Shown in pieces: positions 1 through 18,762 of a DNA stretch of 64,000 nt; positions within the stretch are counted from its first letter, which is position 1, and every line of letters begins with the position of its first letter. The notes below the pieces were generated by a model. The model had not been told where the DNA came from and made no database searches. It was given only the letters and a program-made list of their open reading frames with translations. The position numbers and the translations under genes are program-made. The DNA is from Eubacteriales bacterium. GTDB taxonomy: Bacteria > Bacillota > Clostridia > Christensenellales > Aristaeellaceae. Location of the stretch: positions 669-64,668 of the forward strand of contig JAVBPC010000076.1 in assembly GCA_031549905.1 (NCBI GenBank). The letters run 5' to 3'.

Positions 1-8
1 AAACGCTA

Positions 9-1032: not shown

Positions 1033-1298
1033 ATGCTTAGCGGAAAGTCTACTCTTATTACCGATGGAACTGGTTCCTTTGGCAACTGCCTTGTTGATTA
1101 TGTTTTTTCATTACGATCCAAAGAAGATCACCATTTATTGCGGAGCGAATACGAGCAGCTTCAAATGGAGAAGGGTCAAAAACAACAAGGACAAGCTGCG
1201 CTTTTTTTGGAGATGTGCAGGATGAAATGCGTTTGCGGTGAGTATCAAAGGATGTTGACTATATCGTGCCGCGGCGGCACCAAGGCATAAAGGAGAAA
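1033..1298 (+). pseudogene. CapD/FlaA1-like UDP-sugar 4,6-dehydratase N-terminal remnant, frameshifted and truncated
   Basis: RBS GGGAGAAG precedes ATG 1033. The N-terminus LITDGTGSFGNCLVDYV matches the Rossmann GxxGxxG start of CapD-like dehydratases. Homology continues in another frame (KLRFF / GDVQDEMRLR) across a T7 homopolymer at about 1204-1210. Only about 90 codons remain before tagF starts at 1304. Confidence 0.5.
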
Positions 1299-1303
1299 AG
1301 GCG

Positions 1304-2976: not shown

Positions 2977-4318
2977 AATAGACTGTTTTGGTTTGCATTG
3001 CGCATACAAAGAGGAAAGTTCGGGCCTAAGGGCAAAAAACCTGTTTTCATTGGTTGCCGAAAATGGATTTGACGATTTTTCTGCGCATGGCATAGCGTCA
3101 TATTTTAGTTTCCGCCACCCCATTTTACAATATACAATGTTCAATGGAATCAGCAAATATGATGCGCAACCGGGCAGTCTGATTCCTTCGGAAGTTTGGA
3201 AACCCATTTTCAGCGATCATACCTTGGGAGAAAACCTATTTGAAAAAGCAATCATCGCCAAGGTAGAAGAGAAATTGTTGCGTGCAATTGAAAAGCTTGC
3301 CGGCAGCAAAAAACGCATAGGCGTTACGCTTAGCGGAGGCCTGGACAGTTCCCTCATTTTGAGCATGTTACGCTCTATGTATCCGGATGCGGAGATACTT
3401 ACATACAGCATCGGATTTTACGGTGATGATGAGTTTGAATATTCGAGAGACGCGGCAGCCCGATTTTCTACCCGGCACTGGGAAAAAGTGCTTACCGCGG
3501 AGGATTTCATTGGGAAAGATTCTATTATGAAGCCCCTGATCATGCGCAAGTGCGCACCCCTGCATCCAAATGAGATAGCGCTTGCGCTGGCCGAGCGGCA
3601 GGCCAAGAGAGACGCGTGTGATGTTGTTTTCTGCGGCGAAGGGGCAGATGACATATTCGGGGGGTATGGAAGAAACCTACGAATGTATTTACGATATCTT
3701 CCATCGCAAGATTACTGTGAATTTTTGCTTAGTCGCTACAGATATTTCAAACGAGATGATGTGGCCGGACTAATTCGGGATGAATATCTCCTTGATGATG
3801 CGCAACTTTTAAAAGGCATTTTTGAGGAGGCGGAATGCCCAGCTGACGCCCGAAATAGAATGCTCTATTTTATACAGAGAATCCATACGCGAGGCCTAAT
3901 CGAGAGAGGCATGAATGCACTAGGTTTTGCCGGCTGCGCGCCTGCTATCCCGTTTATCGAACCGGAAATGGTTGAATATGCGAACTCTTTGCCTTTTGAT
4001 TTGCATGTGAAATGGAAAGATGGCTTTAGTGATGCCCATTTCATGGGAATGGATCCCACAATTATCAGTGAAAAATACGACACGCCAAAGTATTTGCTGA
4101 AAAAAGTGGCGGAAGCATATTTGCCGCATCACATCATATATAGGCCCAAGCATGGCTTTCCCGTACCTTTTGAGCTTTGGATGCGTGACCTAAAGACGTT
4201 TGAGCTCAGCAATGCAATTTTTAAAACATCAGATATAAGCAGAATGACCGGATGGCAAAAATTTATGATAATAAACTTGGACTGCTTTATTAAGAGTTTT
4301 ATGCCATACCGGAAGTAG
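2963..4318 (+). CDS. Asparagine-synthetase-like (AsnB C-terminal synthetase domain, PP-loop ATP pyrophosphatase) amidotransferase; no N-terminal glutaminase domain
   Basis: PP-loop motif SGGLDSS (GVTLSGGLDSSLIL) with AsnB-like downstream blocks. It has no Cys2 Ntn glutaminase domain. The likely start is ATG 2969 (RBS TGAGGA); TTG 2963 is the ORF-track start. Confidence 0.65.
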   Translation: MKMHEIDCFGLHCAYKEESSGLRAKNLFSLVAENGFDDFSAHGIASYFSFRHPILQYTMFNGISKYDAQPGSLIPSEVWKPIFSDHTLGENLFEKAIIAKVEEKLLRAIEKLAGSKKRIGVTLSGGLDSSLILSMLRSMYPDAEILTYSIGFYGDDEFEYSRDAAARFSTRHWEKVLTAEDFIGKDSIMKPLIMRKCAPLHPNEIALALAERQAKRDACDVVFCGEGADDIFGGYGRNLRMYLRYLPSQDYCEFLLSRYRYFKRDDVAGLIRDEYLLDDAQLLKGIFEEAECPADARNRMLYFIQRIHTRGLIERGMNALGFAGCAPAIPFIEPEMVEYANSLPFDLHVKWKDGFSDAHFMGMDPTIISEKYDTPKYLLKKVAEAYLPHHIIYRPKHGFPVPFELWMRDLKTFELSNAIFKTSDISRMTGWQKFMIINLDCFIKSFMPYRK

Positions 4319-4355: not shown

Positions 4356-5366
4356 ATGGGATACGCTGCCGTGGAAGACAGATACAGCAAGTTGCCGTAC
4401 AGACGCTGCGGAAAAAGCGGGCTGATGCTGCCGGCGATATCACTGGGGCTATGGCATAACTTTGGGGATATCACGCCCTTTGGCGTGCAGCAATCGCTGC
4501 TGCGCACGGCTTTTGATAACGGCATCACGCATTTTGATCTGGCAAACAACTATGGCCCGCCTTACGGCGAGGCGGAGCGCAACTTTGGCGTGCACATGCT
4601 GCGCGATTGGAAGCCCTACCGCGATGAGATGGTGATATCCACCAAAGCAGGTTACGACATGTGGAAGGGCCCCTACGGCGACCATGGCAGCCGGAAATAC
4701 CTAATCGCCAGCCTGAATCAGAGCCTCAAGCGCATGAACCTGGACTATGTGGATATCTTCTACCATCACCGGCCCGATCCTGAAACGCCAATCGAGGAAA
4801 CCATGGGCGCGCTTGCGCAGATACTCAGAAGTGGCAAGGCGCTGTATGTGGGCATCTCAAATTATCGCGCGGGGCAGGCCGAGCAGGCGATTCAGGCGCT
4901 GGGTGTTCTTGGAAGTCATTTGCTAATCCATCAGCCCAGCTATTCTCTGCTTAATCGCTGGATTGAGGAGCCGGCCGGGGATGCGGGCAGTCTGACGGAT
5001 GTGCTGCGCCGTGAGGGCGTGGGTTGCATTGCCTTTGCGCCACTGCAAAACGGGCTTTTGACTGGGCGCTATTTGGATGGTATCCCGGCCGATTCGCGCG
5101 CCGCGCATGATCCGCGCTACCTAAAGCCTGCATTGATCACCGAGGAGAAGCTCGGCATGGTGCGCAAGCTGAATGTGCTTGCCGGGCAACGTGGCCAAAA
5201 GCTTGCGCAAATGGCGCTGCAATGGGTGCTGCGCGATGAAGTGGTAACCTCGGCCTTGATCGGCGCAAGCAGGCCCGAGCAGATCATTGAGAATGTGGCG
5301 GCGCTCTCCGGTGCACCGTTTACCGCGGAAGAACTGGCGCGCATAGAGGAAGCGCTGCGGGGGTAG
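4356..5366 (+). CDS. gpr: Aldo-keto reductase, L-glyceraldehyde-3-phosphate reductase (YghZ/Gpr)-like
   Basis: 336 aa. There is strong block similarity to E. coli YghZ/Gpr (YRRCGKSGLMLPAISLGLWHNFG..., ITHFDLANNYGPP..., ISTKAGYDMW, GKALYVGISNY, LLIHQPSYSLLNRW, ALIGASRPEQ). RBS GAGAGGA. Confidence 0.75.
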   Translation: MGYAAVEDRYSKLPYRRCGKSGLMLPAISLGLWHNFGDITPFGVQQSLLRTAFDNGITHFDLANNYGPPYGEAERNFGVHMLRDWKPYRDEMVISTKAGYDMWKGPYGDHGSRKYLIASLNQSLKRMNLDYVDIFYHHRPDPETPIEETMGALAQILRSGKALYVGISNYRAGQAEQAIQALGVLGSHLLIHQPSYSLLNRWIEEPAGDAGSLTDVLRREGVGCIAFAPLQNGLLTGRYLDGIPADSRAAHDPRYLKPALITEEKLGMVRKLNVLAGQRGQKLAQMALQWVLRDEVVTSALIGASRPEQIIENVAALSGAPFTAEELARIEEALRG

Positions 5367-5682
5367 GGCGTCTGCTGAAAGCATAATACATGCCTTTGCG
5401 GATCTTTTGCGACATCCGCCCATACCAGAGACCCTGCAGTAAGGTGTGTTTTTCGCCGGGGTTTTGTCTGGAATGTTTGCAAGCCCAGGTGCTCAGCATA
5501 ATTTGGAAAAAATAAATGGCACCGTGCCTTTATCCCGTATTTTAAAGCCATGAATGCTTTGATATAATAACAATATATCGTACAAATCCCCACACCGGTC
5601 AGGCATCTCAAAAATGAACCGTTGACTTGTTACCCTCATTGAACACACAAACCACGGCAACACACGGAAGGAAAATCTTCAT

Positions 5683-8600
5683 ATGAAGCAGACGGTCATA
5701 GCAAGCATCCTTGCGGCGGCGCGGCAAACCCCCGGCAAAGCCGCTGTTGTGGCAGACGACCGCACCGTAACATACGCGGAGCTGTCAACGCAAACGCGCC
5801 GCGTGGCCTTCCAGCTGCAGGCGCAAGGCATTGGGCGGGGCGATATCGTCCCCATCTTTTTGGAAAGAGGCGTTGACGCCGTCGCCGCGATGCTGGGCGT
5901 TCTGTACGCCGGGGCGGCGTTTTGCAATGTGAGCACGGAATACCCGCCGGACCGTGTGGCGTTCATCTATCGGGATACGAATGCCAAGCTGCACATAGAC
6001 GCGGCATGGATGGCCGCGCTGGGCGAGCAGATGGCAGGCCAAGCGACCGCATCCGAAGCGGATGACACGGCGCTGGTCGTGTACACATCCGGCTCCACCG
6101 GCAACCCGAAGGGCGTGGCGTTATCGCACGCAACCATCTGCCAATCGGCACACAACATGATACTGGGGCGCACGGCGGAAGATATCTTCATGTCCATGGC
6201 GTCCTTTTCGTTTATTGCCGTGCTTGTGGATATCTTTTCGCCGCTGATGCTGGGCGCGACGGTGCATGTATTGAACGCGCAGCTGCGCACCGATGCGCGG
6301 CTGCTTGCCGATTATGTGAAGGAAAAGGGCATCACAACCGGGTTTGAGCCGCCGCAGTTTGCCGCCCGTTTTCTGGAGATTGCCGACGGCGCGCTGCGCG
6401 TGCTATTGGTCGGCAGCGAGCGCGTGCGCAACCTGTACAGCACCAGAACGCAGATCATCAATGTATACGGGGCCAGCGAAACCGCCGCCCTCGTGGCGTT
6501 TTTTTCGGTGGATAGGCCGTATGCCGATTCCACGCCCATCGGCTTTGCGCCCCCCGGCGTCACGCTGTACCTGCTGGATGATGACGGCAACAAGGTGCCG
6601 GCGGGGGAGACAGGCGAGATCTGCGTCGCGGGCCAGATTGCCTCCGGCTACCTGAACCTGCCGGAGCAGACTGCCGAGAAATTCATCCGGAACCCATACG
6701 CCACCAGCGAGCACGACGCCGTGCTGTACCGCACCGGCGACCTGGGGCGCTTTGGCGGGGACGGGGCGCTGATTTATGTTCAGCGCAAGGATTGGATGCT
6801 GAAAGTGAGCGGCTACCGCGTGGAGCCGGGCGAGATTGAGGCCGCTATCGTCAGCAGGTCAGACGTGAAACAGGCGGTTGTCAAGGGCTTTCAGAACGCA
6901 TCCGGCGAAACATCGCTGTACGCCGTATACACCGCCGATACCGCCATACCGCCGGATGCCGTGCTGGAGGCGATCCGCGGCTTCCTGCCGGACTACATGC
7001 TGCCATCCTACCTGGAGCAGATCCCCGCGATGCCGCTGAACATCAACGGCAAAATCGACCGCAAGAACATACTGCCCCCCGATTTCACGAAGCTGCAGCA
7101 GGCGTACGAGCCCCCGCAGGGCGACGCCGAAACCGCGCTGTGCGAAGCGTTTGCCAAGGTGCTGAAACTGCCGAAGATCGGCGCGATGGATGATTTCACC
7201 GCGCTTGGCGGGGACTCCATGGCGGCCGTCCGCCTGCAGGCTGCGCTGCCGCAGTACGCATTGGCGGCGGCGGATATCCTGTCGCTGCGCACCCCCCGAA
7301 AGCTTGCGGAGGTGCTGACGGCCCGCCGCCCGCTGACCAAAGCCGCGCCCATGGAAACCTATCCGCTGACGCATGCCGAAAAGCAGATGGCGGCGGAACA
7401 GAGCATGGACCCCGGATCGGTCCAGTACAACATCAACCTTGCGCAGACTCTGTCCGGGCAGCTTGATGTGGACCGCCTGACCGCTGCGATACAGGCGCTA
7501 ATCAACCGCCACGCCATCCTGCGGTCAGGCTATCGCATGGTGGGCGGCGAATACCGCCGGTTTGTGCGCGGGGACGCAAAAGTCATTCTGCCGCTTGAAA
7601 GCTGTGACGCCGAAAGCCTGCAAACCCGCATTGACGCGGCCAACAAGCCCTACGATCTGGAAAACGATCCGCTGTACCGCTTCACGCTGTACCGGCTTGC
7701 GCCTGACTTGCATGTGCTGCACATGGCGTTCCACCATATCATCATGGACGGGACCGCCGCGCCCGCGCTGCTTGCCGACCTGTGGGCGCTGTACGAAGGG
7801 AAAACGCCACCCGCGCCAGCCTTCGACTTTGCTGATTTTGCCGTGTGGCAGCAGGAAAACGGCGATGATGCGGCAGCGGAGGCATATTACGCTTCCCTCT
7901 TTGCGGGCGGGCTGCCGGAAAATGAGATGCCCACGCACCCGCTTCGCCCCGAAACGCTGCCCGTGGCCGATACGGACCTGTTTGCCGCGCTGCCTGCGCA
8001 CAGCCTGCAAAAGGCCGCCCGCAGGCTTGGCGTGACGGAATACGTGCTGATCACGGCGGCGCTGGGGCTGACGGTTGCCAAGTACTGCGGCAGCGAAGAT
8101 ATCATGCTGGGCACCGCGATGAACGGCCGCACGCAGCCTGAAACCGCCGACATGGTGGGCATGTTTGTCAGCACCGTGCCGCTCCGCTTCCGTTTTTCAG
8201 CGGAAAGCAGCGCGGCGGATGTGATCCGCGAAACCGCTGCCATGATCGCCCGCGCGCAGGCGCACCAGGGATACCCCTTCCCGCGCCTGGTGACGGAGTA
8301 TGCCCCAGACCGCAACCCCTCGCGCGGGCCACTGTTTGATGTGCTGCTCAACCATCTTAACAGTCTGCCGCGCTTTGAGCTGCCCGGGCTGAGCGTCTGC
8401 GACCGCCCCATCAAAAGGCAGGCGCTGGCGAATGATCTGGTCATGGAAACCACGCTGAACGGGGACGCGCTGGACATCAAGCTGAGCTATTCGCAAAGGC
8501 TGTACGATGACGGTATCGCGGCGGGCATCCTGGAGCAGTTCACCGCTATTTTACAAAGATTCGTGAAAGACGCAGAAATGCCGGTGCTGGATGCCGCCGA

Positions 8601-11600
8601 ACTGCCCGATGCCATGCGCAGGCGGATCATCGAAGACTTCCACGGCGAGCGCACCGATGAAAACCTGGGAAAAACGGTGGTTGACCTGTTCCGCGCCCAG
8701 GCGGAGCGCACGCCGGAAAATACCGCTGTGGTATCCGGCGAGGCAAGAATCACATACGCAAAACTTGATCGCATTACCGACAACATTGCCGCGCACCTTG
8801 CGCAGCAAGGCGTCTCGGCGGGGGAGTTTGTCGGGATTCTGGTGAACCGCTCCGAAAGGATGCCCATCTGTGCGCTCGGCGTGCTGAAAGCCCGCGCGGC
8901 GTATGTGCCGCTGGACCCCAGCTACCCGCCGGAGCGCCTGGAGTTCATGCTTGCCGATGCCGGCGTCTCCATTGTGCTGGTGGATGAAGGGCTGGAAAGC
9001 CTGATTCCCGGTTTCAATGGAAAATTACTTCTAACATCATCCATATCTACGCTCCCCGACGCCGTGCCCCCCGAAGCGCCGGGGCCGGATGGCACGTTCG
9101 TGCTGCTGTACACATCCGGCACCACGGGCCTGCCCAAGGGCGTGCGGCTGACGCACGCGAACCTGACGAATTTCTGCACCTGGTATCGGAACAAGCACGA
9201 AATCACAGAGCGGGACGGCTCCCTGGCGTACGCCAGCTTCGGCTTTGACGCCAACACGATGGATACCTACCCCGCGCTGATTTCGGGCGCAAGCGTGCAC
9301 ATCATTCCGGAAGAGATGCGCCTGGACCTGCCCGCGCTGGATGCCTACTGCGCCGCGAACCGCGTCACGGTCCTGTTCATGACAACACAGCTGGGCCGCC
9401 AGTTTGCGCAGATGAAGCGCAAAAGCCGCCCGCGCGCGCTAAGCATCGGCGGCGAGTCTCTTACCCCGCTATCTCCGCCGGATGACATCACATTCTACAA
9501 CGTGTACGGCCCCACGGAGTGCACGGTGCTGAGCACCTGGTACCGGATCGACAGGCTGTACGACCGCGTGCCGATTGGCTACCCGCTTTCCAACATGGCG
9601 ATCTATGTGCTGGATAAGCACGGCCGCCTCGCGCCCATCGGCGCGGCGGGCGAGCTTTGCATTGCCGGCCGCCAGGTCGCCGCCGGGTACCTGAACCGCC
9701 CGGAACTGACCGCCGAGAAGTTCACGAAGAACCCGTTTACCGATGAGGCGGACTACGCCCGCATCTACCACACAGGAGACGTGGTGCGCTACCTGCCCAG
9801 CGGTGCGATCGATTTTGTGGGCCGCCGCGATTTCCAGGTGAAGATCCGCGGTTTCCGTGTGGAGCTGACGGAAATAGAAGGCCGCATCCGAGAATATGCG
9901 GGCATCACGGACGCCGCCGTGGTCGCATTGGATGCGCCGGGCGGCGGCAAGTGCGCGGCCGCGTACATCGTTTCCGCCGCGCCCGTGGATGTTGCCGCGC
10001 TGCATGACTTCATCGAGGAAAAGCTGCCGCCGTACATGGTGCCTGCCGCCACGATGCAGATCGACCGGATTCCGCTGAACCCCAACGGCAAGATAGACAG
10101 GCGCAAGCTGCCCGCGCCGGTGTTCGGCGGCGGCGAGGCATCCGGCGCGGATATCAAGGCGCGCCCGCTCAACATCCTGGAAGAGAAGATCATGGCCGCC
10201 GTGCGCGATGTGCTGGGGCATGACCAGTTTGGCCCGGACAGCAACCTGCTCAGGGCTGGGCTTGCGTCGCTGTCGGCGATCAAGCTGATGGCGATGCTGG
10301 ATGAGGCGCTGGGCTGCGCGCCGTCTGTGCGCGATTTCATGCGCGAGCCCACGGTACTGGGCATCGAGAACCTGCTGCTGGAGCGCCTGCTGGCCGGAAA
10401 AGTGCCGGAGCAGACCGCGCCCGCTGTGCCCGCAACGCGCGAAAACTACCCGCTGTCGCACAACCAGATGGGCGTGTACCTGGACTGCATGAAAGCGCCC
10501 GATGCCATGAACTACAACATTCCGATATTCCTGGCGCTGCCCGGCGGCGTTGACGCGCGCCGCCTGCAAAGCGCGGTGCAGGCTGTGATTGACGTGCACC
10601 CCGCCCTTCGCGCGCGCCTTGTCAGGCACGGGGAAACCGCCCAGCAAACGCAGGGGAATGCCATAACGGTTATATTTGAGCAGATGACGGTGACGGAGTT
10701 TGCGGCGTACAAATCGGCCTTCATGCGCCCGTTCGATCTGTTCAAAGATTCGCTGTGCCGCGCGGCGGTGGTCGCTGCGCCGGATCAGGTGCACCTGCTG
10801 CTGGATTTCCATCACATCGTGTTTGACGGCGCGTCCGCCGACCTGTTCCTGCGCGCGGTCGGTGAAGCCTATGACGGAACCGCGCCGCAGGCCGAGCGCC
10901 TGAGCGCGTTCGACTGGGCGGCAGCGGACATTGAACAGGAAGGCACGCAGGCGTGGCAGGACGCGAAAGCGTACTTCGACGGCAAGCTGACCGACTTCGA
11001 ATCGGCATCGCAGCTGTCGCCGGATATGGGCTCGCAAAACAAAGAAGGGCTGCTGCAGGAGGCCGTGCGGACAGTGGACCGCGCCCAGGTGGAGGCGTTC
11101 TGCGCGAAGCACGGCGTCACCCCGGCGGGGCTGTTCGCGGCGGCGTCCGCGTATGCCGTCAGTCGCTGGGTAAACAGCCCCAAGGTGTATCTGGCCATGA
11201 TCAGCAGCGGCCGAGACGACCCGAGGCTGCGGAACACTGCGGGCATGTTCGTGCGCACGCTGCCGCTTGTCATCGGCAGGCAATCCGATCAGACGGTGCT
11301 GGAATACATTGAGTCCGCGCAGCGGGAGCTGACCGGCGCTATCGCCCACGAAAACTACCCGTTCACCCGCGTTGCCGCAGACTACGGCTATACGCCGCAC
11401 ATCATGTACGCCTGTGAGCTGGGCGTGCTGGAAGCATACCGCATCGGCGGCGAAACCGCCGTGATGTCGCCCCCCGGGCTGCAGAAGCCGAAATTCCCGC
11501 TGTCCATCCACATCGAAAACAGGGACGGCGGCATGGTGTTCGCCGTGCAGTATGACGACGGCAAGTACTCCGGGCAGATGATGGCGGCGTTTGCGGAAAC

Positions 11601-14600
11601 GCTTCAGCAGGCGCTGGAGAACATGATGGCGCGCCCGGATCGTCCGGCGTGCACCGTCTCGCTGATGTCAAAAGACCAGCGGGCGCTGATCGCAAAATTC
11701 AACGATACCTGCGATGTGCCGGAGGATACGCTCCACGGCATGTTTGAGGCGACGGCAGCCAAAAACCCCGACCGCGTCGCCCTGATCGCCTGCAATGAAA
11801 CGCTGACCTACGCCCAGCTGAACGCCGAAAGCAACAGGCTGGCGCACGGGTTGCTTGCGCGGGGGCTGCAGCCGGAGGATCGCGTAGCGCTGTTGCTGCG
11901 CCGCACCAGCCGCCCGCTGATCGCCATGCTTGCCGTGCTGAAAGCGGGCGGCGCGTACATCCCCCTTGACCCCGAATACCCGGAAGAGCGGGTGCGCTAC
12001 ATCGCAGAGGACAGCGCCGCGCGGTTCACCCTGACCGAAAACGAAGTGGATGCGTACCGCGAAGGCCAGCCCGCGCACAACCCTGGGCTTGCCGTGTCGC
12101 CCTGCCAGCTGGCGTACCTGATCTACACTTCCGGCTCCACCGGCAAGCCCAAGGGCGTCATGATCGAGCACAGGGGCATCGCAAACTATGTCAACGCCCA
12201 CCCGAAGAACATCCATGTGCACGCCTTGGCGACCGAAGCCAGCGTACTGCTGTCCACCACCACCATCGCGTTTGATATGTTCCTCAAGGAAAGCATGACC
12301 ATGCTGTGCAATGGCGGCACGCTGGTGTTTGCGGATGAGCAGTCCGCCCACGACCCCGTGCGCCTTGCCCAGATGTTTGCCGAAACCGGCGCGGACGCGT
12401 TCAACGCCACGCCTTCCGTCATGCTGGAATACACGTCTTACCCCCCGCTGCTGGATGCGATCCGCCGCTGCAAGGTCATCATGTGCGGCGCGGAAAAGTA
12501 CCCCGAAGCGCTGCTGAAACGCTTCAGCGGCTGCGGCGCGCAGCGGTTCAATACCTACGGCCCCACGGAGATTTCGGTTTCATCAAACGCGCAAAAGCTG
12601 GAAGAGGGCAAGCGCATCACGGTGGGCGCGCCGCTGCTGGGCGTGCGGGAGCAGGTGGTCGATACGGACGGCAACCCGCTGCCCCCGTTGGTGGTGGGCG
12701 AGCTGATCATCGGCGGGCGCGGCGTCGCCAGGGGCTACAACAACCTGCCCGAGCAGACCGCCGAGCGGTTCATCACCGTAGACGGCATTAGGTCGTACCG
12801 TACCGGCGATATGTCCCGCTGGACGCCGGGCGGCGAAATTGAAATTCTGGGCCGAAACGACGGACAGATCAAGCTGCGCGGCCTGCGCATCGAGATGGGC
12901 GAAATCGAAACCGCGCTTGCCGCTGTGGACGGCGTGAGAACCTGCGCGGTGGTGATTCGCAAACTGCAAGGCTCTGAGCACCTGTGCGCGTATTATATCG
13001 CGGATAGGCAAATCCCGGCGGGCGATGTGCGCGACGCGCTGAAACAGCGGCTTGCGCATTACATGGTGCCCACGGCGTACCTCCAGATAGCCGCCATGCC
13101 CAAGACCCCCAACGGCAAGAACGACCTGATGGCTCTGCCCGACCCGGAACTGCTGCGCAGCGGGCAGTATGTGGTCCCGCGCGGTGAAACGGAACAGAAG
13201 CTGTGCGCCATATTTGGCAAGGTGCTGAACCTGGATGCCGTGGGCGCGGAGGATAACTTCTTTGAGCTGGGCGGAAGCTCCCTGATGGTTACGCGCGTGG
13301 TGATCGAGGCGGAAAACGCGGGCCTTGCGGGTGCGGACGGCGCGAAGATTTCGTATGCGGATGTGTTCGCGCACCCGACCCCGCGCGATCTGGCCGCGCT
13401 GCTGAGCGGCGGCAGGCAGGAGCAGCCCGCCAAAGAAGAGGAAACCTACGACTACACCGCCATTCACGCCATGCTGGCCACGCAGGGCGGCATCCCCCCG
13501 CGGTTTGAAAAGCTATCCGGCACGGTGCTGCTGACCGGCGCCACGGGCTTCCTGGGCATCCACATGCTGCATGCGCTGGTGACCGGCGAGCACGCAGAAA
13601 CCGTGACAAAGGTATACTGCCTTGTCAGGAAAGGCCGGTTCCAGTCCGCGCAGCAAAGGCTGAAACACATGCTGTTCTATTATTTCGAGGACAGCTTTGA
13701 CAGTCTGTGGGATGACAAGCTTTTTGCCATCGACGGCGACATGACAAACGCGGAAACCATGGCGCGGATGCGCGAATACCCCGCGCAGACGGTGATCAAC
13801 TGCGCGGCGAACGTATCGCACTTTGCGCGCGACAGCGCCAGCTTTGATGTGAACGTGGCGGGCGTGCGGAACCTCATCGCGTACTGCCGCGATGTGAGGG
13901 CGCGGCTGATCCATGTATCCACCACCAGCGTCGGCGGGTTCTCCGTGGATGGCGTTCCGCCCAGGGATACAAAGCTGGATGAAACAATGCTGTTCTTCGG
14001 CCAGAACATGGAAAACCAGTATGTGCAAACCAAGTTCTTGGCCGAGCGTGAGATACTGGAAAGCTGCCTGGCGGGCCTTGACGCGAAGATCATGCGCGTG
14101 GGCAACCTGATGGCCAGGAACCGGGACGGTGAGTTCCAGATCAACACGAAGGGCAACAGCTTCCTGGGCAGGCTGCGCGCGTACGCCGCGGTTGGCTGCT
14201 TCCCGTACTCCGCCTATTCCATGCTGATGGAGCTTGCCCCCATCGACAGCACCGCAGAGGCGATCCTGAAGCTGTCCTGCACGCCGGCGCAGTGCCGCAT
14301 CTTCCACCCGTACAACAACCACTACCTGTTCATGGGCGATTTCATCAACCAGATGAATGAGGAAGGCGTGCCCATCCAGCTGGTGGAGGATGCGGAGTTT
14401 GATGCGGCGGTCTCCGTCGCGATGCAGGACCAGAGGCGCGCCGAAAGCCTGACCAGCATCATGGCGTACCGCAACATGGCCGGCGGAAAGGCTGCGGTTC
14501 CCATCGCCACCGTTTGCGAGCATACGGTGCAAACTCTGCTGCGTATGGGGTGGCACTGGCCGGAGACCGGCGTGGAATACCAGCGCAGCTTTGTGCGCTT

Positions 14601-14643
14601 CCTGGTGGGCATGGGCATAATCGGAGGTGACGACAATGTTTGA
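5683..14643 (+). CDS. Non-ribosomal peptide synthetase, three modules, A-T-C-A-T-C-A-T-R with C-terminal thioester reductase
   Basis: 2986 aa. Three adenylation cores are present (YTSGSTGNPKGV, YTSGTTGLPKGV, YTSGSTGKPKGV, each with YRTGD/YHTGD and GRxDxQxKxRG motifs). Three carrier domains follow (LGGDSMAA, AGLASLSAIKL, LGGSSLMV). Two condensation domains carry HHIIMDGTA and HHIVFDGAS. The C-terminus is a short-chain-dehydrogenase-type R domain (LLTGATGFLG ... YVQTKFLAE). RBS GGAAGGAAA sits 8 nt before ATG. Confidence 0.95.
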   Translation: MKQTVIASILAAARQTPGKAAVVADDRTVTYAELSTQTRRVAFQLQAQGIGRGDIVPIFLERGVDAVAAMLGVLYAGAAFCNVSTEYPPDRVAFIYRDTNAKLHIDAAWMAALGEQMAGQATASEADDTALVVYTSGSTGNPKGVALSHATICQSAHNMILGRTAEDIFMSMASFSFIAVLVDIFSPLMLGATVHVLNAQLRTDARLLADYVKEKGITTGFEPPQFAARFLEIADGALRVLLVGSERVRNLYSTRTQIINVYGASETAALVAFFSVDRPYADSTPIGFAPPGVTLYLLDDDGNKVPAGETGEICVAGQIASGYLNLPEQTAEKFIRNPYATSEHDAVLYRTGDLGRFGGDGALIYVQRKDWMLKVSGYRVEPGEIEAAIVSRSDVKQAVVKGFQNASGETSLYAVYTADTAIPPDAVLEAIRGFLPDYMLPSYLEQIPAMPLNINGKIDRKNILPPDFTKLQQAYEPPQGDAETALCEAFAKVLKLPKIGAMDDFTALGGDSMAAVRLQAALPQYALAAADILSLRTPRKLAEVLTARRPLTKAAPMETYPLTHAEKQMAAEQSMDPGSVQYNINLAQTLSGQLDVDRLTAAIQALINRHAILRSGYRMVGGEYRRFVRGDAKVILPLESCDAESLQTRIDAANKPYDLENDPLYRFTLYRLAPDLHVLHMAFHHIIMDGTAAPALLADLWALYEGKTPPAPAFDFADFAVWQQENGDDAAAEAYYASLFAGGLPENEMPTHPLRPETLPVADTDLFAALPAHSLQKAARRLGVTEYVLITAALGLTVAKYCGSEDIMLGTAMNGRTQPETADMVGMFVSTVPLRFRFSAESSAADVIRETAAMIARAQAHQGYPFPRLVTEYAPDRNPSRGPLFDVLLNHLNSLPRFELPGLSVCDRPIKRQALANDLVMETTLNGDALDIKLSYSQRLYDDGIAAGILEQFTAILQRFVKDAEMPVLDAAELPDAMRRRIIEDFHGERTDENLGKTVVDLFRAQAERTPENTAVVSGEARITYAKLDRITDNIAAHLAQQGVSAGEFVGILVNRSERMPICALGVLKARAAYVPLDPSYPPERLEFMLADAGVSIVLVDEGLESLIPGFNGKLLLTSSISTLPDAVPPEAPGPDGTFVLLYTSGTTGLPKGVRLTHANLTNFCTWYRNKHEITERDGSLAYASFGFDANTMDTYPALISGASVHIIPEEMRLDLPALDAYCAANRVTVLFMTTQLGRQFAQMKRKSRPRALSIGGESLTPLSPPDDITFYNVYGPTECTVLSTWYRIDRLYDRVPIGYPLSNMAIYVLDKHGRLAPIGAAGELCIAGRQVAAGYLNRPELTAEKFTKNPFTDEADYARIYHTGDVVRYLPSGAIDFVGRRDFQVKIRGFRVELTEIEGRIREYAGITDAAVVALDAPGGGKCAAAYIVSAAPVDVAALHDFIEEKLPPYMVPAATMQIDRIPLNPNGKIDRRKLPAPVFGGGEASGADIKARPLNILEEKIMAAVRDVLGHDQFGPDSNLLRAGLASLSAIKLMAMLDEALGCAPSVRDFMREPTVLGIENLLLERLLAGKVPEQTAPAVPATRENYPLSHNQMGVYLDCMKAPDAMNYNIPIFLALPGGVDARRLQSAVQAVIDVHPALRARLVRHGETAQQTQGNAITVIFEQMTVTEFAAYKSAFMRPFDLFKDSLCRAAVVAAPDQVHLLLDFHHIVFDGASADLFLRAVGEAYDGTAPQAERLSAFDWAAADIEQEGTQAWQDAKAYFDGKLTDFESASQLSPDMGSQNKEGLLQEAVRTVDRAQVEAFCAKHGVTPAGLFAAASAYAVSRWVNSPKVYLAMISSGRDDPRLRNTAGMFVRTLPLVIGRQSDQTVLEYIESAQRELTGAIAHENYPFTRVAADYGYTPHIMYACELGVLEAYRIGGETAVMSPPGLQKPKFPLSIHIENRDGGMVFAVQYDDGKYSGQMMAAFAETLQQALENMMARPDRPACTVSLMSKDQRALIAKFNDTCDVPEDTLHGMFEATAAKNPDRVALIACNETLTYAQLNAESNRLAHGLLARGLQPEDRVALLLRRTSRPLIAMLAVLKAGGAYIPLDPEYPEERVRYIAEDSAARFTLTENEVDAYREGQPAHNPGLAVSPCQLAYLIYTSGSTGKPKGVMIEHRGIANYVNAHPKNIHVHALATEASVLLSTTTIAFDMFLKESMTMLCNGGTLVFADEQSAHDPVRLAQMFAETGADAFNATPSVMLEYTSYPPLLDAIRRCKVIMCGAEKYPEALLKRFSGCGAQRFNTYGPTEISVSSNAQKLEEGKRITVGAPLLGVREQVVDTDGNPLPPLVVGELIIGGRGVARGYNNLPEQTAERFITVDGIRSYRTGDMSRWTPGGEIEILGRNDGQIKLRGLRIEMGEIETALAAVDGVRTCAVVIRKLQGSEHLCAYYIADRQIPAGDVRDALKQRLAHYMVPTAYLQIAAMPKTPNGKNDLMALPDPELLRSGQYVVPRGETEQKLCAIFGKVLNLDAVGAEDNFFELGGSSLMVTRVVIEAENAGLAGADGAKISYADVFAHPTPRDLAALLSGGRQEQPAKEEETYDYTAIHAMLATQGGIPPRFEKLSGTVLLTGATGFLGIHMLHALVTGEHAETVTKVYCLVRKGRFQSAQQRLKHMLFYYFEDSFDSLWDDKLFAIDGDMTNAETMARMREYPAQTVINCAANVSHFARDSASFDVNVAGVRNLIAYCRDVRARLIHVSTTSVGGFSVDGVPPRDTKLDETMLFFGQNMENQYVQTKFLAEREILESCLAGLDAKIMRVGNLMARNRDGEFQINTKGNSFLGRLRAYAAVGCFPYSAYSMLMELAPIDSTAEAILKLSCTPAQCRIFHPYNNHYLFMGDFINQMNEEGVPIQLVEDAEFDAAVSVAMQDQRRAESLTSIMAYRNMAGGKAAVPIATVCEHTVQTLLRMGWHWPETGVEYQRSFVRFLVGMGIIGGDDNV

Positions 14644-16390
14644 GCGGAGCGGCGCATTGCTGGAGCGCAAGTTCAGGAAATTCCTGCTGCCAACGATATT
14701 GACATCGATGGCCATTTCCCTGGCGACCGTGGTGGACAGCGTGATCGTGGGCAATTTGCTGGGCGAAAAGGCGCTGTCGGCAATCGGCCTTTCGGGGCCG
14801 GTGCTGTACAGCCTGAACACGATCTACCTGCTGTTCGCGGTGGGGGGCGTGACGCTGGCCTCCATCGCCAGGGGGGAGCGCGATACCGCGAAGGCGAACA
14901 GCATCTTTACGCTGTCCATCGGCGTGGGGCTTGCCGTGATGACGGTGTTCATATCCCTGCTGCTTATCTTCATGGGGCCGATATGCCACGCCTTGGCACA
15001 AAACAATGCAGAGCTGGAATCCATGACGCGCAGCTACCTGACGCCGATGGTGCTGGTAGGGCCGACAATGATGCTGATCATGGGCATGGCGCAGTTCATC
15101 CGCACGGATGGCAGCCCGAAGATCTCCGCCGCGATCGCGCTGGTGGCAAACATCGTCAACCTGATACTCGATTACATCCTGATCAGGTTCTTTGGCACCG
15201 GCATCGCGGGCGCGGCGTGGTCCACGGTCATCGGGTACCTGACTGGGATTCTGATGCTGATTCCCTACCTGCACTCAAAGAACCGCAACTTCCACTTCAT
15301 CAAGCCCGCGCCCCGTGCGGTGCGGCAGGTTGGGAACATCGCACGCACGGGCACGCCCAAGGCGCTGGTGCAGTGCCTGAGCTTCTTAAGAACGCTTGCG
15401 CTGAACACCATCATCCTCAGCACCATCGGCGCGCCGGGCGTTGCCGCGCTGACCATCTGCATCAACGCGCTGATGATGGCGAACATCTTTATCGGCGGCA
15501 CAAACGATACGCTGCTGCCCATCGTCGGCACGCTGTTTGGCGAAAAGGATTATGTGGGCATTCGCTATTCGATCAAGTCGGGCGCGAAGGTGCTGGTGGG
15601 CGCGTGCGCGGTGATGGTGGCGCTGTTCCTGGTGTTCCCGGAGGGTATTTGCCGCCTGTTCGGCATTGTGACACCGGAGGGCGTGTCTTCCGCGACCACG
15701 GCGCTGCGCCTGTACGCGCTGAGCCTGCCGGTGTACAGCGTGAACATCCTGCTGCAAAACTTCTACCAGACCACGGGGCGGCTTACCAACGCCAATGTGG
15801 TTGCGTGCTCCAACGGGTTTGTGTTTGTGGTGCTATTCGCGCTGATCCTGGCCCCGGCGAACGCAAGCCTCGTGTGGCTGTCGTTCCTGCTGTCGGAGGT
15901 GTGCACGTTCCTGGTGATCCTGGTGATGGGGCGGAGGGTGCGCAGGCGGGACGGTGTCACGGGCCTGCTGCTGCTAAAAGAGGATGCCCGCACCGGCGCT
16001 GAGCTTGACCTTTCCGTTCCGGGCACGGAAGCCGCCGCCGCGGCGCTGGCTGAGCAGTGCACTGATTTCTGCGCCGCGCAGTTTGGCGATGCCGCGCTTG
16101 CGGGCCGTGCGGGCGTTGCGGCAAAAGAGCTGGCAGGCAATATCGCCAAGTACGGCTATGCGCCGCAGACGGGCGTGATGGATGTGCTGGTTCGCCGCGA
16201 AAAGGATGCGCTGATCCTGCGGTTCCGCGATGACGGCGTGCCCTTTGACCCCACCGCGCAGCAAGAGAAAAATGGCGGCATTGGGCGGGTACGGGCAATA
16301 TCGGACGGCATGACGTACACCCGGCCCGTCGGGTTCAATTCCACGCTGGTTACGTTCCGGTTGGATCGTGCGCCGGAAATGCGGCAGTGA
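14627..16390 (+). CDS. MATE-family efflux transporter fused to a C-terminal GHKL/HATPase_c-like (anti-sigma-factor-kinase-like) domain
   Basis: About 440 aa of 12-TM MATE (NorM/DinF-like) sequence is followed by about 150 cytoplasmic residues with GHKL-like boxes (AKELAGNIAKYGY; RFRDDGVPFDP; GGIG). The start is probably ATG 14636 (RBS GGAGGTG), which overlaps the NRPS stop at 14641-14643. Confidence 0.7.
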   Translation: MTTMFERSGALLERKFRKFLLPTILTSMAISLATVVDSVIVGNLLGEKALSAIGLSGPVLYSLNTIYLLFAVGGVTLASIARGERDTAKANSIFTLSIGVGLAVMTVFISLLLIFMGPICHALAQNNAELESMTRSYLTPMVLVGPTMMLIMGMAQFIRTDGSPKISAAIALVANIVNLILDYILIRFFGTGIAGAAWSTVIGYLTGILMLIPYLHSKNRNFHFIKPAPRAVRQVGNIARTGTPKALVQCLSFLRTLALNTIILSTIGAPGVAALTICINALMMANIFIGGTNDTLLPIVGTLFGEKDYVGIRYSIKSGAKVLVGACAVMVALFLVFPEGICRLFGIVTPEGVSSATTALRLYALSLPVYSVNILLQNFYQTTGRLTNANVVACSNGFVFVVLFALILAPANASLVWLSFLLSEVCTFLVILVMGRRVRRRDGVTGLLLLKEDARTGAELDLSVPGTEAAAAALAEQCTDFCAAQFGDAALAGRAGVAAKELAGNIAKYGYAPQTGVMDVLVRREKDALILRFRDDGVPFDPTAQQEKNGGIGRVRAISDGMTYTRPVGFNSTLVTFRLDRAPEMRQ

Positions 16391-16989
16391 TCTACCTGTA
16401 TGAAAACCCTGGCGCGGCGCCGGAGGCGCTGATCCGCGAAACCCTGCCCCTGATGCCGCCCGAGCGTCGGAAAAAGGCGCTTCGCTACCGGTTTGCGGCG
16501 GACCGCAACATGTGCGTGATCGCGTACTGGCTGCTGATGCAGGGGCTTGAAAGGGAGTACGGCATCAAGAAGCCACCGACATTCCTGTACGGTGAAAACG
16601 GGAAACCGGCGCTGGCAGAACATCCAGGCATCCATTTTAACGTAAGCCACTGCAGGGCGGGCGTCGCCTGCGCGGTCTGCGATGATGAGGTTGGCATCGA
16701 TATTGAGGAGACTCAGCCGTTTGGCATTGCCGTGGCAAGGCGCGTGTTCACGCCGGGGGAGCTTGCCCTGCTTGCGCAAAGCGGAGAACCGGACAGCCTG
16801 TTTTGCCGCCTGTGGGCAAGGAAGGAAGCATACCTCAAGCGGCACGGCCTCGGCATTTCGGATGAGCTGAACAGGCTGGAGCTGCCCGATGACGGCTTTC
16901 ATTTCGCCGAACTGGCAAATGCGTGGGTGTGCTGGCACGGCCCCCCGGGTGCCTCAATGGAAGTACATAAAATGAAATACGCAAAATAA
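16387..16989 (+). CDS. 4'-phosphopantetheinyl transferase, Sfp type
   Basis: 200 aa. It carries Sfp-type motifs FNVSHCRAG, GIDIEE and WARKEAYLK. The GTG start overlaps the MATE stop (GTGA), indicating translational coupling. Confidence 0.85.
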   Translation: MIYLYENPGAAPEALIRETLPLMPPERRKKALRYRFAADRNMCVIAYWLLMQGLEREYGIKKPPTFLYGENGKPALAEHPGIHFNVSHCRAGVACAVCDDEVGIDIEETQPFGIAVARRVFTPGELALLAQSGEPDSLFCRLWARKEAYLKRHGLGISDELNRLELPDDGFHFAELANAWVCWHGPPGASMEVHKMKYAK

Positions 16990-16992
16990 ATT

Positions 16993-17055
16993 CCAGGTGA
17001 GCTTTGAAGGGATCATGATCCCTCGAAACCCACCTGGAACTTGTTTTGCCTAAGC
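16993..17055. terminator. Bidirectional rho-independent terminator between convergent PPTase and SBP genes
   Basis: TTCCAGGTG...CACCTGGAA long stem enclosing the nested palindrome GAGGGATCATGATCCCTC, followed by CTTGTTTTGCC. An A-rich stretch precedes it, giving a T-run on the other strand. Confidence 0.6.
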
Positions 17056-17070: not shown

Positions 17071-18753
17071 CTACTCCGCCAGCTCAATCAGATGGTATGT
17101 GCACGAAATCTGCGTGGGCGTGATGGAGTAATTCTGCACGCGGTTACCAACCGCCATCACGGTGGCGCGCCACACGGTGGGGATAGCGGGGGAGTTCTGG
17201 AAGAAGTACTCTTCAAACGCGTAGTACGCGGCGATGCGGGTATCCAGATCCCACGCTTCTTCGGAATCCAGCGCCAGCAGCAGTGCGTCCATTTCCTCTG
17301 TGGCAAAGCGGGTGAAGTTCGGAACCGCGTTCCGGCCCCACGCGCCCGTAAGGTTCGGCGCGGCTTCCAGCAGCCAGCCCGCTTCAAACATATCGACGCC
17401 GGCATCATCGGCAAACAGCATGTCGTAGTACGCGTTGATATCCATCATGCGGCCGCCGACCAGCTGCACATTCAGGCCGATATCCTGCCAGCACTGCATC
17501 TTGAACTGCACAACAACTTCATCATTGTTGTTGGGCACGCCCCAGTTGATGACCAGCGGGCTGCCATCCGGCATTTCGCGGAAGCCGTCGCCGTCCACAT
17601 CGATGTATCCGGCTTCGTCAAGCAGCGCGATCGCCTTATCAGGGTCATAGGCGTAGCCCGTGACTTCGGGGTTCTGGTACTGTGCGTAATCCGGCGGCAG
17701 CACGGTGGGGTTCATGCCGCGCAGGCCGCTATAGAAATCATCGCAGATGGAGCCGAAATCCACGGCGTAGCCGATGGCTTGGCGGAGAGCCAGGTCGCCC
17801 ATCTTGCTGCCTTCAAGATCCGTAACGTTTTCGCCGGTGTCGTAGTTGAAGGAGCCCAGGTGGAAGCCGGTATACTGGTACCAGCGGTCAGGCGCGATCA
17901 TGTAGGTGAAATTCGCCGGTTCCTGATGATCCGCGTACGCGCTCGCCGGGAACGTGGCGATATCATACAGGCCCTGCTCCATCGCGGAGGGCACCATATC
18001 CGGGTTTACAATCGTCAGAGTCACGCCGTCAAGTTTGGCGGCGCCCTGCCAGTAATCATCAAAGCGCACAAGTTCCACCGTTTCGCCCGGCACAACCTTG
18101 CTGATCTTAAAGGGGCCGTAGCCAATGCACTCAGAGCGGGAGCGCTCATCGGCAGCCATATCCTTCACGGCAACATCGCTAAGCTGATGCTTGGGCAGCG
18201 GGTACGTCCAGATCGCGCCTTCCAGGATGGAGGGCCGGAAATCGGTGAAGTGGAAGGTCAGGCTGTTCTTATCTTCGGACAGTTCAAGCCCGGAGATGGA
18301 ATCCGCCGCGCCGCCCATGTAATCGGTGAACCCTTCGATGTACATGATGGCTTCGGTCAGGAAATAGCCTTCATAGTCCGGGCTGCCCAGCACTTCGTAG
18401 GCAAACACCAGGTCTTCCATGGTGACCGGCTGGCCATCGTGCCATTTCACATCCGGTTTCATGGTCAGCGTCAAGGTCTTCGCTTCCTTGTCGTAGGTGT
18501 AGGTGGCCGCGCCGTCCTGGTCGTAGGCCAGGTTTTCATCCATGCTCAGCAGCGGTTCGGTCAGCCAGTACGCGATGGCCGCGTCGGTCAGATCGATGGT
18601 GTAAAGCATGTTCAGCAAGCCGGAAAAGGGCGATGCGCTGGTCAGCGCAACCTTTAGCGTGCCGCCTTCAGCCAGCGCGGAAACGCCGCAAGTCGCCATG
18701 CAAAGCGCGAGCATGCAGACGGCCAGGGTCATGGCAAGCAGTTTCTTTTTCAT
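17071..18753 (-). CDS. ABC transporter substrate-binding lipoprotein, family 5 (OppA/DppA/NikA-like)
   Basis: 560 aa. It has an N-terminal signal/lipoprotein sequence MKKKLLAMTLAVCMLALCMATCG and SBP_bac_5-like length and composition. It is the last gene of the opp-like operon. Confidence 0.8.
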   Translation of the reverse strand: MKKKLLAMTLAVCMLALCMATCGVSALAEGGTLKVALTSASPFSGLLNMLYTIDLTDAAIAYWLTEPLLSMDENLAYDQDGAATYTYDKEAKTLTLTMKPDVKWHDGQPVTMEDLVFAYEVLGSPDYEGYFLTEAIMYIEGFTDYMGGAADSISGLELSEDKNSLTFHFTDFRPSILEGAIWTYPLPKHQLSDVAVKDMAADERSRSECIGYGPFKISKVVPGETVELVRFDDYWQGAAKLDGVTLTIVNPDMVPSAMEQGLYDIATFPASAYADHQEPANFTYMIAPDRWYQYTGFHLGSFNYDTGENVTDLEGSKMGDLALRQAIGYAVDFGSICDDFYSGLRGMNPTVLPPDYAQYQNPEVTGYAYDPDKAIALLDEAGYIDVDGDGFREMPDGSPLVINWGVPNNNDEVVVQFKMQCWQDIGLNVQLVGGRMMDINAYYDMLFADDAGVDMFEAGWLLEAAPNLTGAWGRNAVPNFTRFATEEMDALLLALDSEEAWDLDTRIAAYYAFEEYFFQNSPAIPTVWRATVMAVGNRVQNYSITPTQISCTYHLIELAE

Positions 18754-18762
18754 GTGTGCCTC

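Follow-up and report, generated by a model that had tools for sequence, protein, structure and literature searches.

A trimodular, reductase-terminated peptide synthetase of an Aristaeellaceae bacterium with a predicted N-capped peptide aldehyde product

Which product is released by the large nonribosomal peptide synthetase (NRPS) encoded in contig JAVBPC010000076.1 of an Eubacteriales bacterium (Aristaeellaceae), and how is its chain started? The 64,000 nucleotides of this contig that were analysed are called the window below. The reading that best accounts for the whole locus, to which we give somewhat better than even chances on sequence evidence, is that a capped three-carrier assembly line would make an N-capped Leu-like-Glu aldehyde, an analogue of ruminopeptin.

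The synthetase and its release domain

The NRPS gene occupies positions 5683..14643 of the forward strand, the coordinates already given by a first-pass annotation, and codes from an ATG start for a protein of 2986 residues. It is a real, intact peptide-making NRPS that ends in a reductase. Pfam matches far beyond chance (E-values 1e-218 to 2e-33) identify three AMP-binding, two Condensation, three PP-binding and one NAD_binding_4 (residues 2617–2861) domains; a thioesterase and an N-terminal condensation (C) domain, both sought in the protein by the same search, were not found. Profiles and motifs bear out the order A-T-C-A-T-C-A-T-R, without starter C or thioesterase, that had been proposed. 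The forward-strand domains are the adenylation domain A1 (5683..7092, residues 1–470) and carrier T1 (7114..7338); C1 (7354..8625), A2 (8710..10122) and T2 (10171..10377); C2 (10435..11712), A3 (11743..13152) and T3 (13195..13404); and the thioester reductase (R) domain (13522..14643). Adenylation core motif A3 reads TSGSTGNPKG, TSGTTGLPKG and TSGSTGKPKG in the three A domains, all of which have the A10 lysine. The C-domain motifs HHIIMDG (C1) and HHIVFDG (C2) are intact, as are the phosphopantetheine serines of T1 (GGDSM, residues 509–513), T2 (GLASL, 1526–1530) and T3 (GGSSL, 2530–2534). These A, T and C core motifs are kept across 21 aligned sequences with the exception of C1 in locus L015, which reads HHIIIDA.

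The R domain carries the motifs GATGFLG (residue 2619), HVSTTSV and YVQTK (residue 2780), the last having been noted earlier as "Y-TK". Its best solved-structure match is the PCP-R structure of Mru_0351 from Methanobrevibacter ruminantium (6VTJ/6VTZ, E 6.5e-66), a four-module protein of 4187 residues from an archaeal host, and it is also related to the R domain of AusA (4F6C, E 1e-29). Its glycine motif, STxS segment and YxxxK can each be aligned with those of the solved R domains. The intact Rossmann motif and YxxxK-like element of the first-pass annotation are thus upheld; it had named catalytic residues missing on alignment as one point against its model, and these residues are present. The domain is therefore predicted to be catalytically competent, and the likely chemistry, as first proposed, is release by reduction, giving a small peptidyl aldehyde or else an alcohol. 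An alcohol would result if R of the same assembly line performed a four-electron reduction; the C-terminal alcohol could form a lactone with the side chain of Glu, and no reactive aldehyde would be formed. NRPS R domains of one fold yield either product, with no rule by which sequence would tell the two apart (PMC8024701), and module 3 plus R has the R-terminated synthetase MxcG among its top NCBIfam matches, though below cut-off. However, the closest characterised systems, AusA and the Ruminococcus bromii synthetase (R region 43–46% identical), are described as aldehyde producers, and the neighbouring aldo-keto reductase is of housekeeping type, without conservation across the family. Release as an alcohol is thus held to be unlikely, and the aldehyde is the product retained here.

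Relatives and the start of the chain

The NRPS family is widespread in anaerobes. No characterised member was found in the searchable literature, a scope outside which lie the primary paper on ruminopeptin and Guo et al. 2017. Four loci (L013, L018, L029 and L030) code for C-A-T-C-A-T-R enzymes and have no A1-T1. These enzymes are 52–57% identical to residues 560–2980 of the window NRPS. Their A2 and A3 codes are the same, as are their accessory genes, and they nest at two places within the three-A-domain clade.

Locus L049 of R. bromii (GCA_003459405.1), which we take to be the published rup cluster, is arranged in the order RsbW-like gene, STAS gene, MATE gene with a HATPase_c_2 domain, and C-A-T-C-A-T-R synthetase. 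R. bromii makes ruminopeptin, a gut-bacterial protease inhibitor reported as an N-acyl-Leu-Glu-aldehyde. Residues 553–2980 of the window NRPS align end to end with the L049 ORFs (37%, 43% and 46% identity). Both systems have a colinear C-A-T-C-A-T-R core, an R domain with the same motifs and an adjacent MATE protein with a C-terminal HATPase_c_2 domain, the two MATE proteins being 32% identical over their full length. C1 of the window NRPS is orthologous to the starter C at the N terminus of the R. bromii enzyme and of the bimodular relatives. The R. bromii synthetase starts with this C domain, so that an acyl thioester supplied in trans is presumably the source of its cap, whereas the window NRPS has an additional fused A1-T1 loading didomain (residues 1–552). 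The systems also differ in the code of the middle A domain (DASFLGGVYK in R. bromii, DAMFSGVVLK in the window), in the STAS and stand-alone RsbW-like genes, neither of which is present in the window, and in host GC content (41% versus 60%).

The A1 code, IAVFLGVALK, has Ile in place of the amine-binding Asp235 and no acidic pocket residue, and A1 is predicted to load a non-amino hydrophobic acid. Ile or Val occupies position 235 in 20/20 full-length homologues, none of whose A1 codes has Asp or Glu. Among the best 120 database homologues of A1-T1, 82 are devoid of Asp235; all 82 are N-terminal, in the loading position, and none follows a C domain (0/82; Fisher p = 7e-10). A1 shares with A2 of the same enzyme 6/9 code residues outside position 235, and its pocket residues differ between species with K517 alone invariant. 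Keto-acid A domains are recognised by an aliphatic residue at 235, and the rest of their code is similar to that for the cognate amino acid (PMC10949194; PMC5238615). This is the case for CesA, CesB, PksJ, PyrG and AulA, which are branched-chain-amino-acid-like at the remaining positions (PMC5238615, PMC10949194). Their codes are of the VGMWNG.S.K type, whereas that of A1 is I/V-A/G-x-F-x-G-x-x-x-K, and their modules embed a ketoreductase (KR) domain, which was not found by Pfam in module 1, where A1 and T1 fill residues 1–552. A 2-oxo acid loaded by a module without KR would stay unreduced, and such a cap may persist as an alpha-ketoamide. We know of no precedent for an unreduced 2-oxo acid cap from a KR-less module.

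The absence of Asp235, the restriction of such domains to the loading position, the colinearity with R. bromii and the nested starter-C forms together make module 1 the probable loader of a non-amino cap, which would be a 2-oxo acid, a 2-hydroxy acid or a plain hydrophobic one. We regard it as very improbable that A1-T1 is instead vestigial or skipped, the enzyme then behaving as C-A-T-C-A-T-R and either receiving its cap through C1 from an acyl-CoA or acyl-ACP or making an uncapped dipeptide aldehyde or pyrazinone. Enzymes close to this one work with no A1-T1 (over their common region, L013 and the three-A-domain L001 are 75% identical) and the first A domain of AulA is non-functional (PMC5238615). 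Nonetheless, core motifs A3, A5, A7, A8 and A10 (including K517) of A1 and the T1 serine are kept among homologues that are only ~50% identical, and 19% of A1 columns show no variation in 20 sequences, pointing to purifying selection. The TGD motif (YRTGD) of A1 also retains its invariant Asp, unlike that of AulA-A1.

Operon and export

The synthetase gene is preceded by an intergenic region of 316 bp (5367–5682) with 44% GC, against 63% within the gene. It holds one good promoter-like site, TTTAAA-16 nt-TGnTATAAT with an extended -10 TG (5541..5568, forward strand), identified by consensus match only, and just before the gene's ATG at 5683 is a GGAAGG ribosome-binding site. The next gene codes on the same strand for a MATE efflux transporter of 584 residues (14636..16390) whose better start, ATG 14636, overlaps the NRPS stop codon. 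It is followed by a gene for an Sfp-type 4'-phosphopantetheinyl transferase (PPTase) of 200 residues (16387..16989, forward strand), whose start overlaps the MATE stop (GTGA). A strong hairpin (16981..17049; -41 kcal/mol, z -7.3) lies between the convergent genes for the PPTase and a peptide-binding protein and probably closes the operon as a bidirectional terminator. Note that the same hairpin gave a sub-threshold match to a miRNA model, read as chance. From this arrangement, NRPS, MATE and PPTase genes are assigned to one operon extending from about 5541 to 17050. The low GC content, the promoter-like site and the three-gene unit agree with the earlier proposal that an AT-rich island provides independent regulation.

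The MATE C-terminal ~145 residues (nucleotides ~15953–16387) form a conserved RsbW/SpoIIAB-like HATPase_c_2 domain. In most relatives there are additionally a STAS protein, a dCache-HAMP-PP2C phosphatase and an F390-synthetase-like protein, with a stand-alone RsbW-like protein in some cases. A tblastn search of the 64 kb with the family PP2C, STAS and F390-like proteins gave none of them, the HATPase domain fused to MATE being the only such element. A neighbourhood theme of MatE, serine phosphatase and anti-sigma-factor antagonist was reported in 2010 for M. ruminantium, whose Mru_0068 is C-A-T-C-A-T plus a release domain that is called a thioesterase in the main text and a thioester reductase domain in the legend of Fig. 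S8 (PMC2812497). A tentative proposal, with the odds rather against it, is that the RsbW/SpoIIAB-like domain is the output of a partner-switching circuit by which an environmental signal would gate aldehyde export post-translationally. To our knowledge, such gating of a MATE transporter would be a regulatory mode without prior description.

Substrate codes and predicted product

The reading of A-domain specificities suggested by the first-pass annotation gave, besides the A1 code, DAMFSGVVLK for A2 and DMKNMGTVSK for A3. Stachelhaus positions were set with a fragment that we take to be the GrsA reference and that reproduces DAWTIAAICK at canonical numbering; the GSE and YGASE motifs served to place A1 positions 299/301 and 330/331 manually. 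The A2 code is hydrophobic and Leu-like, and its DAMFSG part is kept in nearly all relatives. The A3 code has Lys239 and no Asp or Glu beyond Asp235, and it agrees with the terminal A code of R. bromii (DMKNLGTVSK) at 9/10 positions. It is invariant at 10/10 positions in 20 sequences, compared to 32% of all A3 columns. Six peptide patterns were used to retrieve the family loci; as one of them, DMFLKESM, spans A3 positions 235, 236 and 239, these three are ascertainment-biased. The 7 code positions outside the pattern are all invariant (chance ~3e-4), and terminal modules equally distant from A3 carry other codes. By this comparison the A3 code is under constraint. A3 is predicted to select Glu from its near-identity to the R. 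bromii terminal code and from Lys239, the assignment of Glu itself coming from the literature.

These codes bear on the free-amine, leupeptin-like tripeptide aldehyde first proposed, possibly cyclising to an imine, in which each of the modules loads an alpha-amino acid. The domain order without starter C would suit it, and in overall similarity A1 is closest to NRPS A domains of amino-acid type (LgrA, TycA) and not to aryl-acid ligases. A free amine is nevertheless very improbable given Ile235 and the non-acidic A1 code across the family, the occurrence of such domains in the loading position only among the best 120 A1-T1 homologues, and the orthology of C1 and the rest of the enzyme to starter-C C-A-T-C-A-T-R synthetases, that of R. 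bromii included. The comparison to leupeptin (acyl-Leu-Leu-argininal) holds for a short peptide aldehyde with a cap and protease-inhibiting activity but fails at P1, which is Arg in leupeptin; A3 has Lys239, no acidic residue for a guanidinium and a match to the Glu-position domain of R. bromii, not an Arg code. Leupeptin is moreover made in enterobacteria by discrete ligases and not by a modular NRPS. Cyclic imines and pyrazinones lose their support because both need an N-terminal amine.

Guo et al. 2017 reportedly described 47 NRPS-R clusters of gut Clostridia that yield dipeptide aldehydes and pyrazinones. The window enzyme resembles this family as a small NRPS ending in a thioester reductase, in anaerobic gut Bacillota, with predicted peptide-aldehyde chemistry and protease inhibition. 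It differs by its three A domains, by a P1 residue predicted to be acidic and not hydrophobic, and by A1 without Asp235, whereas pyrazinone formation needs a free N-terminal amine. This account of the gut family draws also on PMC12282076. AusA (aureusimine, or phevalin/tyrvalin; A-T-C-A-T-R) is the best NCBIfam match, at 1474 bits and below the 2500 cut-off, and its partner PPTase AusB is the best NCBIfam match for the window PPTase. AusA makes an aldehyde but is bimodular, and both its A domains load amino acids, giving a free-amine dipeptide aldehyde that cyclises to pyrazinone.

The capped assembly would then proceed as follows. The PPTase would prime T1–T3. A1, which has no amine-binding Asp, would adenylate a hydrophobic acid without alpha-amino group and load it onto T1, the leading candidates being branched-chain or aryl 2-oxo or 2-hydroxy acids, with a plain acid also possible. 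C1 would move this cap onto the amine of the Leu-like residue loaded by A2, and C2 would add the Glu predicted for A3. R, whose catalytic residues are present, would use NAD(P)H to free cap-(Leu-like)-Glu, to a predicted extent of reduction that leaves a C-terminal aldehyde, and the MATE pump would export it. The product would be an N-capped dipeptidyl glutamal that plausibly inhibits proteases cleaving after Glu and, if the cap loaded by A1 stays an alpha-ketoamide, would be a double-electrophile inhibitor.

Organization and distribution of the synthetase

The NRPS is encoded by ORF 5683..14643 (+) and has 2986 aa. A Pfam search assigned to it three AMP-binding domains (with AMP-binding_C), two Condensation, three PP-binding and one NAD_binding_4 domain (aa 2617-2861), and found neither a thioesterase nor an N-terminal C domain, which defines the order A-T-C-A-T-C-A-T-R. 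The first-pass annotation had described both this ORF and the order without starter C or TE. Adenylation core motif A3 is intact in its three copies (TSGSTGNPKG, TSGTTGLPKG and TSGSTGKPKG), A10 is present three times as NGK(I/N)D, the C domains feature HHIIMDG and HHIVFDG, the carrier serines of the T domains lie within GGDSM, GLASL and GGSSL, and the R domain has GATGFLG and YVQTK. When the protein is aligned with 20 full-length homologues, the core motifs are all kept, the lone exception being the first C domain (C1) of related locus L015, which reads HHIIIDA. The R domain matches a solved R-domain structure (E 6.5e-66), with the glycine motif, the STxS segment and YxxxK in register. The catalytic motifs, on which the first-pass annotation had made reductive release depend, are thus in place.

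When one genome per GTDB species was scanned, 47 related loci emerged. In 20 of them a full-length ORF of 2984-3113 aa is 45-59% identical to the window protein, with which it aligns end-to-end. Full-length or near-full-length homologues are found in MAGs labelled Clostridia, Christensenellaceae, Saccharofermentanales and Desulfovibrio, and also under the labels Oxalobacter, Chitinispirillales and Ca. Methanofilum (one MAG labelled archaeal); these last three labels may be binning errors. Where the records name a source, it is an animal or human gut, a termite gut or an anaerobic digester. Synthetase or terminal-module homologues occur in methanogen-labelled records, namely L016 (Ca. Methanofilum arcanum) and the database matches P0443, P0473, P0485, P0490 and P0492 (Methanobrevibacter). 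With labels taken as recorded, they agree with an earlier report of M. ruminantium NRPSs, whose genes were linked to MatE and anti-sigma-type regulators already in 2010 (PMC2812497) and whose products were still unknown in 2021 (PMC8024701). Minimal A-T-R proteins are also found (P0003, 967 aa; L038:10001-12922), with a family-like R domain and an A domain that resembles the first one of the window protein (Ile at position 235); they resemble enzymes of the carboxylic-acid-reductase type, or may have arisen from the three-A-domain synthetase by deletion. No description of the three-A-domain version was found in the searchable full text, which omits two key papers, and a full-text literature search with the A-domain codes and with 'tripeptide aldehyde' + 'NRPS' retrieved nothing.

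Predicted substrates of the first and last adenylation domains

The ten Stachelhaus positions were read against a GrsA fragment that gives DAWTIAAICK at canonical numbering; positions 299/301 and 330/331 of A1 were set by hand on its GSE and YGASE motifs. The codes are IAVFLGVALK for A1, DAMFSGVVLK for A2 and DMKNMGTVSK for A3. A1 carries Ile at the position of the amine-binding Asp235, where all 20 homologues have Ile or Val, and no acidic residue is found at any position of its code in these 20 sequences. Among the 120 best database homologues of the A1-T1 didomain, 82 domains are without Asp235, all of them at the protein N-terminus and none after a C domain, while Asp235-bearing domains are found in both positions (Fisher p = 7e-10). 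Restriction to the loading position is what would be expected of domains that activate an acid without an amine, which can do nothing but start a chain. The pocket residues point to a hydrophobic acid without an alpha-amino group as the A1 substrate. The free-amine tripeptide aldehyde of the first-pass annotation finds no support here, nor does its cyclic-imine option. The absence of Asp235 also separates the synthetase from the AusA/pyrazinone type.

Keto-acid A domains have an aliphatic residue in place of Asp235 and are otherwise similar in code to domains for the cognate amino acid (PMC10949194), and the codes for aliphatic and aromatic alpha-keto acids begin with Val (PMC5238615). A1 is like these keto-acid loaders at position 235 but is without their KR domain. 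Outside this position it shares 6 of 9 code residues with the hydrophobic A2 of the same protein. The A1 pocket differs among species, K517 being its sole invariant residue in the 20-homologue alignment, so the N-cap may vary by species. The best database match to A1-T1 has 51% identity, a value that says little on rarity because the matches listed are all shorter than ~975 aa, yet the clusters include proteins of up to 2003 aa. An F390-synthetase/PaaK-like gene of the relatives was considered as a stand-in for A1 and rejected, since it occurs both with and without A1-T1.

The remainder of the line has a counterpart without the loading didomain. Loci L013, L018, L029 and L030 code for orthologous C-A-T-C-A-T-R proteins with 52-57% identity to window residues 560-2980, whose first C domain has an intact HHxxxDG; A1-T1 is found nowhere in these four loci. 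Their A codes are those of the window (DAMFSG..K and DMKNMGTVSK) and accessory genes are also in common. A distance tree built on the shared region puts the four starter-C forms at two separate points within the three-A-domain clade, L013 having 75% identity to the three-A-domain L001. This double nesting implies that A1-T1 was repeatedly gained or lost with the remainder of the line unchanged.

A word-index search with A3-T3 led to P0410, a 149-member cluster that includes RGS78425.1 of Ruminococcus bromii, the producer of ruminopeptin. The R. bromii locus (L049), assumed here to be the rup cluster, has in order genes for an RsbW-like protein, a STAS protein, a MATE with HATPase_c_2 and the NRPS in three ORFs. 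Combined, these give C-A-T-C-A-T-R and are colinear with window residues 553-2980, to which they are 37-46% identical. The NRPS is called in L049:6141-13470 as overlapping or abutting ORFs of 1287, 923 and 250 aa; the split in GCA_003459405.1 could stem from frameshifts or faulty assembly, or the gene could really be split or decaying in this strain. Its A codes are DASFLGGVYK and DMKNLGTVSK, the second matching that of window A3 at 9 of 10 positions. The R. bromii system thus has the core, the exporter type and the P1 code in common with the window locus, and differs from it in its N-terminal starter C and its adjacent partner-switching genes. According to PMC12327764, the ruminopeptin structure was deduced from rup enzymes in vitro and chemical synthesis.

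By homology to the R. bromii terminal domain, A3 is predicted to select Glu, which would place Glu at P1; Lys239 is also the residue that tells Glu from Gln in SrfA-A1. The leupeptin-like reading given earlier is not retained, A3 not being an Arg domain. Across 20 sequences the A3 code does not vary at any of its 10 positions, whereas just 32% of A3 columns are invariant. The search pattern DMFLKESM overlaps the code; for the seven code positions outside it, the chance of invariance is about 3e-4. Equally distant terminal A-T-R modules have other codes, for example DAQSRGCVAK in Prevotella-labelled MAGs, which argues that conservation of the A3 code is not simply inheritance. Related A-T-R modules with DAQSRGCVAK, featuring Gln239 and Arg299, are very abundant among the database matches (P0395-P0470, e.g. 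the 254-member cluster P0461), which suggests a sister family with another conserved P1 residue.

The operon, its exporter and the flanking genes

The 316-bp region upstream of the NRPS gene has a GC content of 44% versus 63% within the gene and contains one strong promoter-like candidate (TTTAAA-16-TGnTATAAT, 5541-5568); no riboswitch or T-box leader was found there. For the MATE gene the most likely start is ATG 14636, preceded by GGAGG and overlapping the NRPS stop codon. The exact protein sequence predicted from this start is on record (Logan run SRR23967709) with the same PPTase next to it; exact-sequence look-ups gave no match for the NRPS, the aldo-keto reductase encoded upstream, a GTG-start MATE or the RtcB match. 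The identical RtcB is encoded on a 72-kb NCBI contig. The PPTase gene (16387-16989) overlaps the MATE stop codon with its start. A hairpin between convergent genes (16981-17049; -41 kcal/mol, z = -7.3) separates the operon from a peptide ABC transporter; its sub-threshold Rfam match to a microRNA model (26 bits versus a gathering score of 80) is read as chance.

The carboxyl-terminal ~145 aa of the MATE protein (window 15953-16387) match HATPase_c_2 and are RsbW/SpoIIAB-like. Beside the NRPS, this fusion is kept in 31 related loci as well as in R. bromii, with an N-box-like EEMxxN and RDxGxPFxP conserved in the family; the family alignment has no clear G2 box, which looks degenerate. Among 1.84 billion representatives, 394 relatives of the domain were found at E <= 1e-3, and about half of the best 150 of these are 575-605-aa proteins matched at ~430-590, with the same MATE fusion. 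Other neighbours are a PPTase (25 loci), an F390-synthetase/PaaK-like adenylating enzyme (21 loci), a dCache-HAMP-SpoIIE(PP2C) phosphatase (18 loci), sometimes with its own HATPase_c_2, and a STAS anti-anti-sigma protein (12 loci). Carriers of the PP2C, STAS or F390-like genes include L001 (L001:11661-16220), L003, L008, L010, L016, L018 and L029; none of the three is found in the whole 64-kb window. The fusion, together with the STAS and PP2C genes of the relatives, suggests that the pump may be under partner-switching control.

The aldo-keto reductase (4356-5366) was rejected as a tailoring enzyme because it is absent beside all family loci; it scores 447 bits to the L-glyceraldehyde-3-phosphate reductase family (cut-off 448). 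The convergent Opp/Dpp-type transporter (17071-23824, minus strand; two family-5 binding proteins, two permeases and two probable ATPases) was likewise rejected as a cluster part, since it is not conserved beside homologues and lies beyond the strong terminator hairpin. It is probably unrelated to the NRPS operon; peptide uptake beside a peptide-aldehyde cluster is nevertheless suggestive. Window 1-4318 is a low-GC block (44% versus ~60% for the remaining window) coding for a polysaccharide-synthesis protein, a CDP-glycerol glycerophosphotransferase, a cytidylyltransferase and an asparagine-synthase-like protein, and is possibly a teichoic-acid or polysaccharide island gained by horizontal transfer. 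Elsewhere, 32601-34757 (-) codes for a 718-aa protein with internalin-like leucine-rich repeats and 57130-59700 (-) for an 856-aa protein with PQQ/BamB-like beta-propeller repeats. The large ORFs 35613-37478, 40202-42499 and 59799-61859 have no NCBIfam match.

Predicted product and its significance

In the proposed pathway A1 would put a hydrophobic non-amino acid onto T1, C1 would transfer this cap to a Leu-like residue on T2, C2 would append Glu on T3, and the R domain would release cap-(Leu-like)-Glu reductively, most likely as an aldehyde rather than an alcohol, for the MATE pump to carry out. The evidence supports the general class first proposed, a reductively released peptide aldehyde of the protease-inhibitor type, with the aldehyde and the inhibition as its predicted elements.

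Few natural products of the microbiome have a defined activity directed at the host or at microbes; the peptide aldehydes of gut anaerobes, with their inhibition of proteases, belong to these few. A widespread relative of the ruminopeptin-type core carries a fused A-T loading didomain, which would set N-cap identity genetically, while starter-C forms rely on the available acyl thioesters. The invariant A3 code predicts one P1 residue, Glu, family-wide, which points to proteases that cut after Glu and gives synthesis or heterologous expression a concrete product to aim for. As a separate lead, the conserved MATE-RsbW-like fusion bears on the controlled export of such reactive metabolites.
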